A stretch of 32,000 nucleotides of DNA from Microcystis aeruginosa NIES-2549 (GTDB lineage: Bacteria; Cyanobacteriota; Cyanobacteriia; Cyanobacteriales; Microcystaceae), in NCBI RefSeq assembly GCF_000981785.2, contig NZ_CP011304.1, forward strand, positions 3,390,001-3,422,000, given 5' to 3'. The first letter of the stretch is position 1; each line of letters opens with the position of its first letter. Under the pieces are notes generated by a model, which searched no databases, was not told where the DNA came from, and saw nothing but the letters and a program-made list of their open reading frames with translations. This document shows positions 26,239-32,000 of the stretch, one piece after another. The position numbers and the translations under genes were made by a program.

Positions 26239-26805
26239 CTACAATCCCTCTAGAGGAATTTCCAGAAAACGAGCGAGTTCCGCTCCTTGATTTTCCAATT
26301 CCGAGAGGGACATCGGATCACCGACGCGAGTTAAAGGGATATCGCGACGCTGTTTAATCCGCAGGAATAGTTCCCGTTTCGGGTTGAGTCCTTCTCGCAC
26401 TTCGGCCCGCACAGCTTGCACATCTTCCATGGGCCAATCGAGATCAATGCGACGATTTTTGCCGGGGTAGCCCCAACGAAAGATTTTAACTTTGCCGGTT
26501 TCCTTATTAAACTCGTTGTAACCACCTCCGACATTCCAGAGGAGAGATAACCAGAGATAGATGGCTAAAAGGGTCCCCGCAGTGCCATAAAAGAGGAGGG
26601 CGACTCCTTGGGGAATAAATTGTAAGGCACTGGTATCGCTAACGAGAAGTAGATTGACCTTCAAATAACTGGAAAGACCGGCGAGGAGAAACCCTAGACC
26701 GCCAATAGAGACGATTACAGCCCAAAAATAGTTACTAGGGCGACGCGCTCCCACTACTTCTTGCCGTAGGATCAGGCTATCTTTACTTGTTGTTTGCGCT
26801 TTCAT
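26239..26805 (-). CDS. ycf4: Photosystem I assembly protein Ycf4
   Basis: Two N-terminal TM helices and motifs [18 protein letters not shown] and [10 protein letters not shown]. Confidence 0.9.
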
Positions 26806-27152
26806 GAATTCTTTTTAAGGTTGCCTAGAGTTATTTTACCAGCTTTTTTCTCGCCACTTCCCCAACCCCGACCCAGGGATGCAGCCGTTGATTTTTCTGG
26901 ATGTACCCGTGTTTATCATAATATTTACTTATAGGTGAGTGGGGGAAGTTTAGGGGAAAATTCCCTAATCGTAATTCTCCTCGGCAACAATCATGCGTTA
27001 GATTTATTCGGGGTTTCCTTAATTTGTACCCAGTAACAACACATCAGATACAGCACGGGTTATGGTCTTTTGTCAAGGGGGAAGTCCAATAATTAAATCT
27101 CTACCTTTTAAAATACAAATGAACTATTAAAAGTAAATCCGTAGTCAATTAC

Positions 27153-27613
27153 TCATAACTTCGGTGGCTGCTCGTAACTTTTAAGGTGTTTGTCCAAAGA
27201 CCATATATAGACGCGGCGGCTTGGATTTTGATCACAAATTTTCTGCCAATCATGAATGATAGAAAAGTCCCCAGTCCCCTACGTTGCATCGCTTGATCAG
27301 GAAACTCTTTTAACCATCCTTGCAGGTCTTCTTGCTTTAGAAAATTAATAGGGGTGAAGGGAGATTTTCCTTCAAGAGCTTGTGTTACCTGATTTACAAA
27401 TTTTTCTGCACAAGTGCGTCGCTGATTGCCATCTCCATTTTGGGCAATATGATTGCCAGTTTCCAGAATAGTCGCCATTGGCAAAAAAAGAGATTCTCTA
27501 GCTTCAATTTTCTCTTTTAACTCTTGAAATATTAACTCAGATTGACTCGCTTTGTGGGGTACATTAAGTATCTCTAAAAAGATCGAAGTATCGATCAGAC
27601 AAATAGCTCCCAT
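27153..27613 (-). pseudogene. PIN-like nuclease ORF coupled to the upstream ATPase, frame broken at a GGGGACT GGGGACT repeat
   Basis: The ATG at 27611-27613 overlaps the ATPase stop (TGATG). The sequence reads CLIDTS ... ILETGNH and then switches frame at 27266-27279. The other frame continues GTGDFSIIHDWQKICDQNPSRRVYIWSLDKHLKSYEQPPKL to a TGA at 27153-27155. The ORF as given ends at 27149. Confidence 0.5.
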
Positions 27614-28938
27614 CAGGCTACTTCTCCCTGTTTTAATTGCTCTAACCAACTTAGCGCGTTTTGTTGACGTTGTTCTGCTGTGGACTTATCCTTTAAGAAC
27701 TTATCTAATACTTGTTTAGTCATCAACTGACCAAGAGTTCCCTGCACAATTAATTCGGGGAAACGCTCTAAATCAGCTAATCGGACAATACGACTATCTC
27801 CTGCTTGCGGATCTCGGTAACAACAAAGTACATTTCCAATATCACTATCGGGTACTGCATCTAATAACGCCGGGTTATGGGAGGTGATCAGTACCCTCAG
27901 TTTTCTTTCTAAGGCGATCTCCCGAATTTGCTTAACTAAATTATCTGCACGACTGGGATGAACACCATTATCGATCTCTTCAATAATTACGAAAGTTCCA
28001 GGATTTACACTTAGTAGAGTTGCAGCAATCGCTAAAACTCTCAGAGTACCATCAGACAACAAAGGAGCATCTATCTGATGTTCTTTGTTCCCAAAAGACT
28101 CTATTAGTTTCACCATAACATCCTTGCGGTCTGTAATGATAAAGCGAATATCGGTAATATCCTGTTCTGGTAATGAACGAATGAAATCAAGCAACTTGTT
28201 TTTTTGAGTCTCTCCCTGCTGACAAACTGCGTAAAGAACACTAGAAAGGTTAGAGCCATCTTCTTTAATATCATCATCTTTAGCGTAAGCATAATCCCGC
28301 ATTACTGCTGGACGAGGATCAAGAAAGACGATATTTCTCAAGGTTTCTCGAATTACTTTAGTAACTGCTGGAATAATTTTTTGTGATTTAGTATGACTTT
28401 GCTGGAACCGACTGGGAGTTTCCAATTGATAAAAAATAGCTTGTCGGTTAGAGCAAGGTATGTGGGGCTTTTTACCACCTTTATTAAAATTGTTATACAT
28501 CACCCTAATTTCATCGGTGTGCGGGTTAGGATCGCCATCAATTTTGTAAAGTGTTAATTCCTGATCTTTACTAGCTTTACTGACACTTTCTCCGATTATA
28601 ATAAGTTGGTCTGATAATAGCCCAATTTCAATCTCAAAATCAGTCCAACCGTCAGGAGCGTTATCAATGTGTGTTGCCAAGGTAAAATACTCTTTTTCTG
28701 CACCGAAAAGATCGATCGCTTGTCCACGAGCAATTGCATTCCCGCTTTGAATGTTGCGTTCAATGTCATCTAACCTGCTGCCTTTCGCTAACCACGAAAG
28801 TAAGCGAATTGCTTCTAGTGCATTACTTTTTCCTGACGCATTAGCACCGATTAAAAAGGTGATGGGTGCTAGAGACAAGGTTGCCTCCTGATAGCTTTTG
28901 AAATTCCGAAGAGTCAGCGATGTTAACATACTTTTCAC
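27613..28938 (-). CDS. ABC/SMC-like AAA_15/AAA_21-type ATPase
   Basis: Walker A GANASGKSN, signature-like LSDGTLRVLAIA, Walker B FVIIEEIDNG and H-loop ITSHNP. There is no fused nuclease domain. Confidence 0.85.
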   Translation of the reverse strand: MKSMLTSLTLRNFKSYQEATLSLAPITFLIGANASGKSNALEAIRLLSWLAKGSRLDDIERNIQSGNAIARGQAIDLFGAEKEYFTLATHIDNAPDGWTDFEIEIGLLSDQLIIIGESVSKASKDQELTLYKIDGDPNPHTDEIRVMYNNFNKGGKKPHIPCSNRQAIFYQLETPSRFQQSHTKSQKIIPAVTKVIRETLRNIVFLDPRPAVMRDYAYAKDDDIKEDGSNLSSVLYAVCQQGETQKNKLLDFIRSLPEQDITDIRFIITDRKDVMVKLIESFGNKEHQIDAPLLSDGTLRVLAIAATLLSVNPGTFVIIEEIDNGVHPSRADNLVKQIREIALERKLRVLITSHNPALLDAVPDSDIGNVLCCYRDPQAGDSRIVRLADLERFPELIVQGTLGQLMTKQVLDKFLKDKSTAEQRQQNALSWLEQLKQGEVA

Positions 28939-28957
28939 CCATTAAATCTTGACTGGT
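28761..28957. repeat. 197-bp direct repeat, copy 1 (ATPase codons 1-59 plus 19 nt of leader)
   Basis: It matches 30808-31004 with 2 mismatches, one synonymous (TCG/TCA) and one Leu/Val. Confidence 0.9.
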
Positions 28958-29659
28958 GCAGTTTGAGCATTTGTACTAAAAGTTCCAATACCAGCGCAGC
29001 TTATAGACTCTAACAAGTACCGAAAACTAGCACCCATAACCTTGAAAACTCAAACTGTAGGGCAGGGCATATCCGAACAGTATAATCTAGGCTTGGGGAG
29101 ATAAGATCGCTGTTTATTGGCATTAGGGCGGAACCCTTACCCTTACTGCAGGTCGCTTCTCAGAAAAAATTGAAAAGACGCTACTGGGTACATTTTCCCC
29201 TTGAAAATGGCTGTACCGTTGACTGTATCTAGAGTAGAGCGATTCTGTGGAGTTGGCTGTATGGTGATCGCTAACCTTATGATCACAGATGATGTCATTA
29301 ATCTTTAGAGTAAGCAATTCCCTCTGTAGCCATGTTTTTGCTGGTTTTCTGCCCCGAAACAAGCTATAATGATCTAAGGGTCAAATTAGAAGATTTTTGC
29401 CGCAAACCCTATCTGCGTAAAGACTTCAGGATTTTGTGTTCAGTAGCTCATTGGTATTATATGGCTTTAACTCAGGCTCTGTAAGACTTTTAGCCATAGC
29501 TAGTATTTTTGTACGGGTAAAGTCCAGAGCTAAATGGTTGCCTTTTTTAACTTTTTTATTGATCTCATTAAGCATTTCTACTTATTGCAAGGGTGAGATG
29601 CTCCCTTATGAAATATGAAACTAGAGGCAAAGTCAAAATTAATAATCGTCTTAATTCCA

Positions 29660-30010
29660 ATGAAATTAAAAGATATTGTCAACAAAGTCAAAATAGATTC
29701 TAGAAAATTAACCCAATATGCTCTCAATTTAGACAATCCAAAAGGATTAAATAAAGCCATCATGTTTCAACGCCACTTAGGATATACTCAAGATAATTAT
29801 GAGCCACTTCTACAACAAATCGCTAACAAATCCCTTGAAGCAAAAGCTGTTTATCAAAGTACAGATCGACATGACAAACGCTATCAAGTTGACCTAGAAA
29901 TTACAGGAATTGAACCAGGGCAACAAGAAATAGTGAGGACTGGATGGATTGTTGATCCTGATAGTGATACAGCTAAATTAGTAACTTTATATGTGAGAAA
30001 AAGACCATGA
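29660..30010 (+). CDS. DUF6883-like protein (putative toxin-like partner)
   Basis: MKLKDIVNKVKIDSRKLTQYALNLDNPKGLNKAIMFQRHLGY resembles that family, recalled from memory. I prefer the ATG at 29660 over 29615. Confidence 0.55.
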   Translation: MKLKDIVNKVKIDSRKLTQYALNLDNPKGLNKAIMFQRHLGYTQDNYEPLLQQIANKSLEAKAVYQSTDRHDKRYQVDLEITGIEPGQQEIVRTGWIVDPDSDTAKLVTLYVRKRP

Positions 30011-30315
30011 TTAAACCAGAATTATTTGACCTTGTGGAATTATTAGTTGACTTGCCTGAACATAACTTAATAATGGGAGAACAAGGGACAATTGTTGAAG
30101 ACTACAATGATGGTTGTTACGAAATTGAATTTAGTAATGATCTAGGGGAAACTATAGCCCTTTGTTCTCTCCCAATGCAGCAATTTATTGTTATCTGGAA
30201 AGCTCAGAACAAAACTTGGTTATCTTTAACAGAAAAGCTAACAGCTTTAATCGATAAATTACCCAAAGAAAAGCAACAAAAAGTTTTAGATTTCACCCGC
30301 TCTTTGTATCAATAA
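30007..30315 (+). CDS. DUF4926-like protein with a C-terminal antitoxin-like tail
   Basis: ATGA overlap with the upstream ORF. The N-terminal two thirds resemble DUF4926 (ELFDLVELLVDLPEHNLIMGEQGTIVE...EIEF). The tail is LPKEKQQKVLDFTRSLYQ. Confidence 0.55.
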   Translation: MIKPELFDLVELLVDLPEHNLIMGEQGTIVEDYNDGCYEIEFSNDLGETIALCSLPMQQFIVIWKAQNKTWLSLTEKLTALIDKLPKEKQQKVLDFTRSLYQ

Positions 30316-30482
30316 AATCGGAAAAAATAGGCTATTCCAGAATTGTTATGCAAATAATTAACTTAAAATAAAAGCTAAAATTCATATAGGGAAGGACTTA
30401 AGGCACAAACAAGTTAAGGCCACAAAGATAGACAATAGAGTTAAGATTTGATATAATCGCCAAAAACGAGAGTATTTTACCT

Positions 30483-30807
30483 ATGATAGTTGATAAATTT
30501 TTGAACCTAAAAGGAACCTCTATTCAAGGCTATCGACACCTAGAAAATATCGGTATATTTTGACGAATTGAATCAAAAAATAAAAAAGCAACGGCTCGAC
30601 TGAGCGTTCGACTGAGCTCACGCCGAAGTCTCGCCGAACGTCCTGTCCTCGTTGTGGGTTAGAGAGCGATAAACTACACCAAAATCATCGACATTTAGTC
30701 AAAGATTTACCGCTCTCAGGCTAACCAGTGTACCTACAAGTTAATCGTCGTCAATTTAAGTACGTTAATTGTCAGAAACCCTTTAGCAAAGAGTTAGATT
30801 TTGTCGC
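30483..30807 (+). mobile_element. Degraded ISL3-family transposase N-terminal remnant
   Basis: It reads MIVDKFLNLKGTSIQGYRHLENIGIF-stop, then in another frame SCPRCGLESDKLHQNHRHLVKDLPLSG-stop-PVYLQVNRRQFKYVNCQKPFSKELDFV, and ends abruptly at the ATPase fragment. It has two in-frame stops, a frame change and a truncation. Confidence 0.65.
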
Positions 30808-30985
30808 CAATGTCATCTAACCTGCTGCCTTTCGCTAACCATGAAAGTAAGCGAATTGCTTCTAGTGCATTACTTTTTCCTGACGCATTAGCACCGATTA
30901 AAAAGGTGATGGGTGCTAGAGACAAGGTTGCCTCCTGATAGCTTTTGAAATTCCGAAGAGTCACCGATGTTAACATACTTTTCAC
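30808..30985 (-). pseudogene. Truncated second copy of the ATPase (first 59 codons only)
   Basis: MKSMLTSVTLRNFKSYQEATLSLAPITFLIGANASGKSNALEAIRLLSWLAKGSRLDDI is near-identical to the N-terminus of 27613-28938. The repeat continues to 31004. Confidence 0.85.
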
Positions 30986-31230
30986 CCATTAAATCTTGAC
31001 TGGTAGTGATTTTATTGTAGTGGTGATAGCTCATCTTAATAGTGAGGTAAGCTGTTGACTATCTAAATTACTCGTTAAGATTGGATGGGAGAAGGGTGAA
31101 GGAGTTCGAGCATTTGTGGTAAAACTCGCAATACGCAGTTAAATGCAGTACAGCTTACGACTGCTTATTATACTAAATCTGGTTATTAAAGACTGATTAT
31201 TTATTCCCCTTTTTGCATGAGTGCATGAGT

Positions 31231-31324: not shown

Positions 31325-31660
31325 TTAGTAGCGGCCGGCATTGGGTTTATGAACAATAAAGCTCATGGTTTGACATTGTTTGATGTTGTCAAAAGCGATA
31401 ACGCGGATGTAGCAATCAGAATATTCAGTGCGGCACTCGCGAACTTCATTAAGAACTTCTTGGGGGCCAGAAACAGAGAATAAAGGCAGTTTCCACATCG
31501 TCCAATGATAATCTGCGGGTTTGGGATCTTTTTCAAATTCCACAGCAGGAATATAACCCTGATCGATCATGTATTGAATTTGTTTAGCAATTTGTTGATC
31601 GGTGAGGGGGGGCAAGTAGGAAAGAGTTTCGTAACGCTTCTCTTTAGGTAAAGTTTTCAT
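31325..31660 (-). CDS. rbcS: RuBisCO small subunit
   Basis: [43 protein letters not shown] ... [10 protein letters not shown]. Confidence 0.95.
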
Positions 31661-31675
31661 GGGTTTCTTGATTCC

Positions 31676-32000
31676 TTATGGGTTGGGTAGATCATCAACA
31701 TCGAGATTTAATTCCGATGTCTCTGGTTGACTTATAGCAGTACGGGTGAGACGTTCCAAAAGTTGCCGACGATGTTCGGTATTGTCATTAATAATTCCCG
31801 TTTTTACCATCTCTGGCAAGAACTCTAAAACCTGTTCGGCTAGATGTTCTCTTACCGTCATGATCCGCAAAACTAACTCTTTATTCTCAGTCATTAACCC
31901 CGCAATATAGGCCTCGCCATCCTGAATGGAATGGCTAGAAGTATAGTGACTCAGCCAAATAGCCAAAGTGGGATTAGTTTCTGACAATTGATCGATAATC
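31676..32000 (-). CDS. rbcX: RuBisCO assembly chaperone RbcX (5' end beyond the window)
   Basis: ETNPTLAIWLSHY ... DGEAYIAGLMTENKELVLRIMTVREHLAE, lying between rbcS and the expected rbcL. The frame is open to the window edge. Confidence 0.85.
   Translation of the reverse strand, partial: IIDQLSETNPTLAIWLSHYTSSHSIQDGEAYIAGLMTENKELVLRIMTVREHLAEQVLEFLPEMVKTGIINDNTEHRRQLLERLTRTAISQPETSELNLDVDDLPNP

Follow-up and report, generated by a model that had tools for sequence, protein, structure and literature searches.

Judged by its sequence, a two-gene locus in the genome of the cyanobacterium Microcystis aeruginosa NIES-2549 is a copy of PDC-M07, a candidate phage defence module that has already been catalogued, and this copy has decayed. 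The window analysed here is a stretch of 32,000 nucleotides (nt) (RefSeq assembly GCF_000981785.2, contig NZ_CP011304.1, positions 3,390,001 to 3,422,000, forward strand), and coordinates below are positions within it unless another locus is named. On its minus strand, an intact ABC-type ATPase gene of the PDC-M07A family (27613 to 28938) is followed by a small PIN-like gene of the PDC-M07B family (27149 to 27613), present as a pseudogene allele. An initial annotation of the same DNA had proposed a defence module made of an ATPase and a PIN-like nuclease, with an architecture that it could not name. That interpretation is partly supported, its biology being right and its claim of novelty wrong, and the finding itself is an ordinary one, a decayed copy of an already catalogued defence candidate.

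Family assignment

The ATPase matched the PADLOC profile PDC-M07A (PDLC04393) with an E value of 3.4e-225 (745.9 bits), its residues 4 to 439 aligning to profile positions 1 to 433 of 435. The small protein matched PDC-M07B (PDLC04394) at 1.6e-45; the match is limited to profile positions 1 to 130 of 154 because of the frameshift described below, and PDC-M07B models were the only PADLOC matches of this protein at an E value of 0.1 or less. The genes lie adjacent, on the same strand and in A-then-B order, as PDC-M07 is laid out; in the window they are not both intact, B being truncated after residue 115. The family was defined in supplementary table 8 of Payne et al. 2024 (bioRxiv 10.1101/2024.01.29.577857; "CAS_00050 ... 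Assign as candidate PDC-M07," count 406), where PDC stands for "phage defence candidate" and denotes cassettes embedded in bacteriophage exclusion (BREX), DISARM or type I restriction-modification (RM) loci. By these matches, the architecture was already known. The PADLOC profile search thus captured both proteins with an existing defence-system model, the outcome that the initial annotation had itself set against its claim of novelty, and HEC-03 and the pairing of OLD-type ABC ATPases with PIN proteins in BREX loci are further precedents.

The ATPase open reading frame (ORF) encodes 441 amino acids (aa) from a GTG at 28938. Its true start is likely the ATG at 28929 (M4), giving 438 aa, because residue 4 is where the alignments with profiles and homologues begin and because a 438-aa product has been recorded; an exact-protein look-up found the ATG-start form in CP012375.1 and returned no record for the 441-aa GTG-start form. 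All four ATPase motifs named by the initial annotation were present at their places on the minus strand: the Walker A motif or P-loop GANASGKSN (residues 31 to 39, 28822 to 28848, read off the sequence), the ABC signature-like LSDGTLRVL (residues 294 to 302, 28033 to 28059), the Walker B and D-loop region FVIIEEIDNG (residues 316 to 325, 27964 to 27993) and the H-loop ITSHNP (residues 351 to 356, 27871 to 27888). Above-threshold Pfam matches were obtained to AAA_21 (102.8 bits, cut-off 27; 4.8e-29), AAA_15 (76.5 bits, cut-off 32.1; 3.9e-21) and SMC_N (51 bits, cut-off 40), and no Toprim family was found by Pfam in the 441-aa ATPase. These profiles identify the large protein as an ABC/SMC-class ATPase, OLD/AAA_21-like, which agrees with the SMC/RecF/OLD-like class proposed at the outset. 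Membership in MADS and Septu was rejected because the NCBIfam scores for MAD3 (90 bits, cut-off 420) and PtuA (43.6 bits, cut-off 500) lie far below their cut-offs.

The small ORF opens with MGAICLIDTS at 27613 and holds the motifs CLIDTS and ILETGNH; of its 154 aa, residues 1 to 115 are authentic and the last 39 are out of frame. Against Pfam it reached 14.7 bits for PIN (cut-off 23.6) and 14.9 bits for PIN_12 (cut-off 32), with E values of about 0.04, so that the Pfam check proposed earlier held for AAA_15 and AAA_21 in the ATPase and fell short for PIN. Weak, sub-threshold matches to PF01850 were found for 53 of 68 members of the small protein's family (best member 1.8e-4), and no unrelated Pfam family recurred. 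NCBIfam had no model for the small protein, and searches with PIN-family profiles against PDB sequences gave nothing meaningful; the PIN relationship was revealed by fold comparison only.

A profile search for relatives of the small protein gave 938 clusters at 50% identity (E of 1e-3 or less). An alignment of 123 sequences, drawn from the 50%-identity representatives, was used as AlphaFold2 (AF2) input for an intact, 93% identical homologue (P0002); an earlier AF2 model, for which the shallow alignment held just 36 close homologues, had a predicted local distance difference test score (pLDDT) of 57 and was unusable. The P0002 model (pLDDT, 96.9; predicted template modelling score [pTM], 0.90) has an alpha/beta/alpha fold with a parallel sheet (strands 4 to 7, 41 to 44, 86 to 88 and 135 to 138) and matches solved PIN domains. 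Compared with the PDB by Foldseek, 36 of its top 40 matches were PIN/VapC-type domains. The best of these were PAE0151, FitB, M. tuberculosis VapCs, VapC20 and AF1683 (probability, 1.00; template modelling [TM] score, 0.58 to 0.69), with Utp24 and SMG6 ranking lower. A viral structure library returned a single weak PIN match, and nothing points to a phage origin.

Four acidic residues stand out in the family alignment: D8 (123/123 sequences), E51 (120/123), D116 (119/123) and D141 (119/123). They lie where a PIN domain is expected to carry them, namely after beta-1, in the helix after beta-2, before the helix at 114 to 129 and after the last strand. On the modelled fold, the small protein is a predicted single-domain nuclease of the PIN fold, in which the metal-binding tetrad D-E-D-D is conserved. 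Proteins with PIN domains are, as a rule, RNases. The initial annotation had described a partner without HNH or TOPRIM motifs that was instead PIN-like, and had picked out the acidic residues in CLIDTS, ILETGNH, GDFSII and SLDKH; the P0002 model and Foldseek bear out the PIN assignment, and the residues named are those of the tetrad.

Gene coupling and genomic context

The stop codon of the ATPase gene (TGA) shares one base with the start codon of the PIN gene (ATG) in a TGATG at 27611 to 27615 on the minus strand, and the single operon read from this overlap by the initial annotation is supported. For a census, one genome per species was scanned with the PIN alignment; more than 550 loci encode a relative, and the best 80 were examined. 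The ATPase gene lies directly upstream of the PIN gene and on the same strand in 78 of the 80, which is every locus with room upstream (78/78), the two exceptions being PIN matches at a contig end. Stop and start overlap in 69 of the 76 loci where this could be measured (56 of the ATGA/GTGA type, 9 of the TGATG/TAATG type and 4 by 23 nt), and the identities of ATPase and PIN to the query co-vary (r = 0.92). Gene order and overlap mark the ATPase and PIN genes as one translationally coupled unit throughout the family.

Hosts of the pair include Cyanobacteria, Gamma- and Deltaproteobacteria, Planctomycetota, Verrucomicrobiota, Acidobacteriota, Chloroflexota, Salinibacter and Spirochaetota, as well as the archaea Methanothrix and Methanosarcina. 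The type 1 BREX genes brxC and/or pglX adjoin the pair in 23 of the 80 loci, with the pair sitting between both genes in 20, and hsdR is found in 3 further loci; in the other 54, neither BREX nor HsdR occurs within the fetched flanks (up to 6 kb). The assignments of these neighbours are strong (E values of 0 or near it for BrxB, BrxC and PglX and of 7.7e-223 for HsdR). With the ATPase strictly upstream and BREX/RM neighbours recurring, the gene-neighbourhood check suggested by the initial annotation came out positive, and the census arrives, independently, at the guilt-by-embedding signal from which PDC-M07 had been defined.

The insertion site between brxC and pglX is the same in all 20 embedded loci (among L005 to L043; e.g., L007, 579 to 9942), on the same strand as the pair, and spacers around the pair are near zero in the BREX loci inspected. 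These 20 loci come from proteobacteria, one cyanobacterium (Snowella), Verrucomicrobiota, Planctomycetota and Methanothrix. In Thiohalocapsa marina (L034, 6443 to 8296), a 617-aa protein encoded just downstream of the pair matches the MADS components mad3 (1.2e-31) and mad8 (4.6e-10), so that a further ATPase-type defence gene stands beside the pair.

The frameshifted PIN allele

One A is missing from the PIN gene at 27269/27270 (minus strand), where relatives read CTGGGAGAC and the window reads CTGGGGAC. When the gene is aligned with those of four relatives and of CP012375.1, a plain 1-nt deletion is seen (CTGGGAGAC to CTGGG-GAC). The small ORF departs from the family frame after G115, and the remainder (GDFSIIHDW...SLDKH...PPKL*) continues in the other frame as a displaced C-terminal part (DFSIIHDW onwards, 27153 to 27269, minus strand) that encodes D116, D141 and the last beta strand. 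Only D8 and E51 of the tetrad remain in frame in the window allele. The frame break had been noticed by the initial annotation, whose start coordinate for the locus, 27153, is the stop of the displaced frame. Insertion of one base repairs the gene to 153 aa, the length most common among intact relatives, and over 100% of its length the repaired protein shows 93% identity to intact Microcystis proteins of 153 aa. A 7-nt tandem (GGGGACT GGGGACT) was considered as the cause of the frameshift and rejected, since its removal leads to an early-stop frame and the alignment shows a deletion of a single nucleotide.

M. aeruginosa NIES-3806 (P0032, BJCJ01000017.1) and a Logan read-set assembly both encode the same out-of-frame tail; a third cluster (P0055), compared by length and coverage only, agrees in its 154 aa and its 76% coverage. 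By this comparison, the frameshift is a real allele and not a read error, because NIES-3806 carries the identical tail. The PIN copy in the window is most likely a non-functional remnant, because the deletion truncates the protein after residue 115 and removes two of the four catalytic acids; the locus would then hold an intact ATPase beside a dead effector.

Intact alleles occupy the same chromosomal site in other Microcystis (L001 to L003 and CP012375.1). The window and CP012375.1 are 99.6% identical over 10.4 kb, with 45 differences, 42 of which fall within about 660 bp (26901 to 27560) that take in the PIN gene and the sequence on its 3' side; the ATPase genes are 100% identical at the nucleotide level. 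This stretch looks like a recombination patch that swapped the effector allele only. Because the differences cluster there and the ATPase is identical, the broken effector allele would have arrived on, or arisen within, a short recombination patch. Another PIN allele, likewise intact and 155 aa long, is found in Microcystis relatives (L081, 7317 to 7784; L003, 6001 to 6468), where HIAKAKKVDG(H/N)QRR stands in place of HIAQNGDGNQRR, a two-residue insertion in the loop directly after the conserved ETGNH motif. The PIN effector is therefore polymorphic within the genus Microcystis.

Proposed function and alternatives

PDC-M07 is probably a defence pair composed of an ATPase that serves as sensor and scaffold and a PIN nuclease that serves as effector, and the window would hold a decayed copy of it. 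A role in defence, as the initial annotation had supposed, is the best reading of the family, given the 23 of 80 loci beside brxC and/or pglX and the 3 more with hsdR. By analogy with PARIS (AriA/AriB) and HEC-03, the ATPase would hold the PIN nuclease inactive. A phage cue might then trigger ATP-dependent release or activation of the nuclease, and an anti-restriction protein is a plausible cue because the family is embedded in BREX/RM loci. The activated PIN protein would cleave RNA and bring about abortive infection.

Several points weigh against this proposal. The sensing, release and RNase steps are drawn from analogy only, and the PIN assignment itself stays under Pfam thresholds when sequence is taken alone, with Foldseek E values that are modest (2.6e-3 at best). 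The Microcystis copies are placed outside BREX/RM, between ycf4 and rbcS. Among Microcystis strains, the ATPase has a ratio of nonsynonymous to synonymous substitution rates (dN/dS) of 0.17 to 0.45, which fits continued constraint despite a broken partner and which the reading of the locus as a dead remnant leaves unexplained. The PDCs, although curated, with 145 of them added to PADLOC, are called "untested" by their authors (Payne et al. 2024, bioRxiv 10.1101/2024.01.29.577857). No paper came up in a full-text search for "PDC-M07", and a search for "PDC-M" gave mostly unrelated ones, the definition standing only in the supplementary table.

A more specific version of the sensor-and-nuclease proposal is rather doubtful. 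PDC-M07 might be a genuine abortive-infection system with a mechanism of its own, in which an OLD-like ATPase guards BREX/RM by sensing anti-restriction proteins and releases a stand-alone PIN RNase, with the Microcystis alleles showing the cost of autoimmunity. If so, an effector that alone was swapped and knocked out by a patch of about 660 bp, beside an ATPase that stays identical and constrained, would make that cost visible in a population, and the ATPase could even keep a function without its nuclease.

It is unlikely that the pair is a toxin-antitoxin (TA) or addiction module with no antiviral role, in which a VapC-like PIN toxin is held by the ATPase in place of VapB and the module stabilizes the islet or mobile DNA. 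VapC and FitB toxins are the best structural matches of the PIN protein, the operon is tight, with overlapping stop and start, and the patchy spread over bacterial phyla and archaea points to horizontal transfer. HEC-03 strains, moreover, were grown without isopropyl-beta-D-thiogalactopyranoside (IPTG) because of apparent toxicity (Payne et al. 2024), and the loss of a toxin gene with retention of its "antitoxin," as in the window, is a typical path of TA decay. Against this stand the recurrence of the module beside brxC, pglX and hsdR and the antiviral activity of HEC-03, the closest tested architecture. There is no VapB-like DNA-binding antitoxin here, and a 441-aa ABC ATPase with intact motifs seems excessive for simple neutralization. 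TA and abortive-infection roles are, in any case, not mutually exclusive.

Slightly less likely still is an accessory role, in which the pair is a "backup effector" of BREX/RM that depends on the surrounding system, so that the stand-alone Microcystis copy was never autonomous. OLD-ABC-centred modules have been proposed as a backup effector layer of BREX (PMC12839542), and where the pair adjoins brxC and/or pglX (23/80 loci), it does so on the same strand and, in the loci inspected, with near-zero spacing. However, the 54 loci with neither BREX nor HsdR in their fetched flanks speak against such dependence, as do the intact copies that persist at a non-BREX site in several Microcystis strains; other embedded systems, among them PARIS and HEC-02 to HEC-08, also work when cloned alone (Payne et al. 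2024).

That the break in frame arose from faulty sequencing or assembly, the module being intact and functional in NIES-2549, is very improbable: a single-base deletion beside a short G run is a common type of error, but the identical tail occurs in the independent NIES-3806 assembly (BJCJ01000017.1) and in the Logan read-set assembly, and the deletion lies inside the 660-bp patch, whose clustered substitutions mark a distinct allele. A housekeeping pair, made of a RecF/SMC-like DNA-repair ATPase and an RNA-processing PIN nuclease, can practically be dismissed, since the matches that would suggest it, to head motifs of RecF, Rad50 and SMC, are weak, fall far below family cut-offs and cover only P-loop or signature regions, the distribution is patchy and the context variable, and the locus is polymorphic and pseudogenized within one genus.

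The surrounding islet

In the window, the pair sits in an accessory islet of about 4.4 kb between ycf4 (26239 to 26805) and rbcS/rbcX (31325 to 31987); in CP012375.1 and NIES-3806, it occupies the same position between ycf4 and rbcS. The initial annotation had described a small islet with TA-like genes and insertion sequence (IS) debris, and both are found. Outside the module, on the plus strand, genes for DUF6883 (131 aa, 29615 to 30010) and DUF4926 (102 aa, 30007 to 30315) overlap by 4 nt (ATGA; together 29615 to 30315). This small TA-like pair lies between the two copies of the ATPase 5' end described below, and PADLOC returned no significant match for it. The IS debris is a zinc-ribbon fragment of an ISL3-family transposase with an internal stop (30644 to 30807, plus strand; Zn_ribbon_ISL3, 2.4e-11).

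An orphan duplicate of the ATPase 5' end, together with 19 nt of leader, lies at 30808 to 31004 on the minus strand (197 nt, 99% identical to 28761 to 28957). The two copies form a direct repeat, the second of which holds a 63-aa ORF (30794 to 30985, minus strand). The ISL3 fragment ends exactly where the truncated duplicate begins, which suggests that an IS-mediated rearrangement may have created the duplicate. The orphan copy is also present in CP012375.1, NIES-3806 and a metagenome-assembled genome (MAG) of M. novacekii and is apparently absent from M. ichthyoblabe (L003). Downstream of DUF4926, about 260 nt (30340 to 30597) recur at 84% identity in the Microcystis locus L001 (263 to 548) and are probably a small dispersed repeat or a miniature inverted-repeat transposable element (MITE). 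A promoter and terminator scan of 26800 to 29400 found sites no more frequent than in shuffled sequence.

Comparison with known systems

Among the fused or HNH-linked systems, Septu differs both by its PtuA score, given above, and by its HNH protein (PtuB), no HNH domain being present in the window pair. In Gabija GajA and the OLD family, a TOPRIM nuclease is fused to the ATPase, whereas the nuclease here is a separate PIN protein. Menshen (NsnA-NsnB-NsnC) likewise joins an ABC ATPase, NsnB (matched by the window ATPase at 4.3e-22), to a partner with a PIN-like domain. It differs in having three genes and in PIN-like domains that are without catalytic residues and fused to a separate nuclease domain; the PIN protein of the PDC-M07 family, unlike these, is a stand-alone domain in which D-E-D-D is kept.

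VapBC and FitAB share the PIN fold and the D-E-D-D tetrad, VapC and FitB being the best structural matches. They differ in their small DNA-binding antitoxin, the place of which is taken here by an upstream ATPase (441 aa in the window) in 78/78 loci, and the similarity of the small protein to Pfam PIN models is sub-threshold.

PARIS resembles the module as a two-gene combination of an ABC ATPase sensor (AriA) with a nuclease effector that can sit inside BREX/RM loci. In its mechanism, the DNA mimic Ocr is sensed and a tRNA-cleaving RNase is then released. The window ATPase matched AriA models at 2.2e-28, a partial match far weaker than that to PDC-M07A. The effectors differ, AriB being a DUF4435/TOPRIM protein and the partner family here having a PIN fold, with no AriB match in PADLOC.

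HEC-03 consists of a DUF3696-type ABC ATPase and a VapC-like PIN protein and protects Escherichia coli against phages, with both genes required (Payne et al. 2024, bioRxiv 10.1101/2024.01.29.577857). Like the present pair, it places an ABC ATPase before a small PIN protein (about 155 aa) in one operon and was found by its embedding in defence systems; its own genes overlap by 14 nt. BLASTP of the window ATPase against a HEC-03A sequence cut at 399 aa aligned motif blocks only (8e-10 over 89 aa; 2e-6 over 171 aa at 26% identity). In this alignment, the two ATPases share just the P-loop and the Walker B/H-loop blocks, FMEQPEIHLHP of HEC-03A aligning to the FVIIEEIDNG stretch, and the 25 best PADLOC matches of the window ATPase do not include HEC-03A. 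The PIN profile gave an hhalign probability of 2.5% against HEC-03B, so that HEC-03 is an analogue and a separate family. A survey of BREX (NAR 2026, PMC12839542) also lists pairs of an OLD-type ABC ATPase and a PIN endoRNase among the "backup effectors" inside BREX loci.

The closest likeness is to PDC-M07 itself. The window pair agrees with it in gene order, strand and adjacency, and the BREX/RM embedding recurs among relatives of the pair; the differences are the frameshifted B gene of the window and the position of the Microcystis copies outside BREX/RM. With the family and its architecture already in PADLOC and defence by ABC ATPase plus nuclease well populated (PARIS, Gabija, Septu and HEC-01 to HEC-04), the locus offers little that is new for the field. 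PDC-M07, which is widespread (many bacterial phyla, Methanothrix and Methanosarcina), strictly linked and, in 20 of 80 loci, embedded between brxC and pglX, is a reasonable target for validation, and in Microcystis, where intact and frameshifted forms occur naturally at a single chromosomal site, the alleles could be compared for susceptibility to cyanophages.

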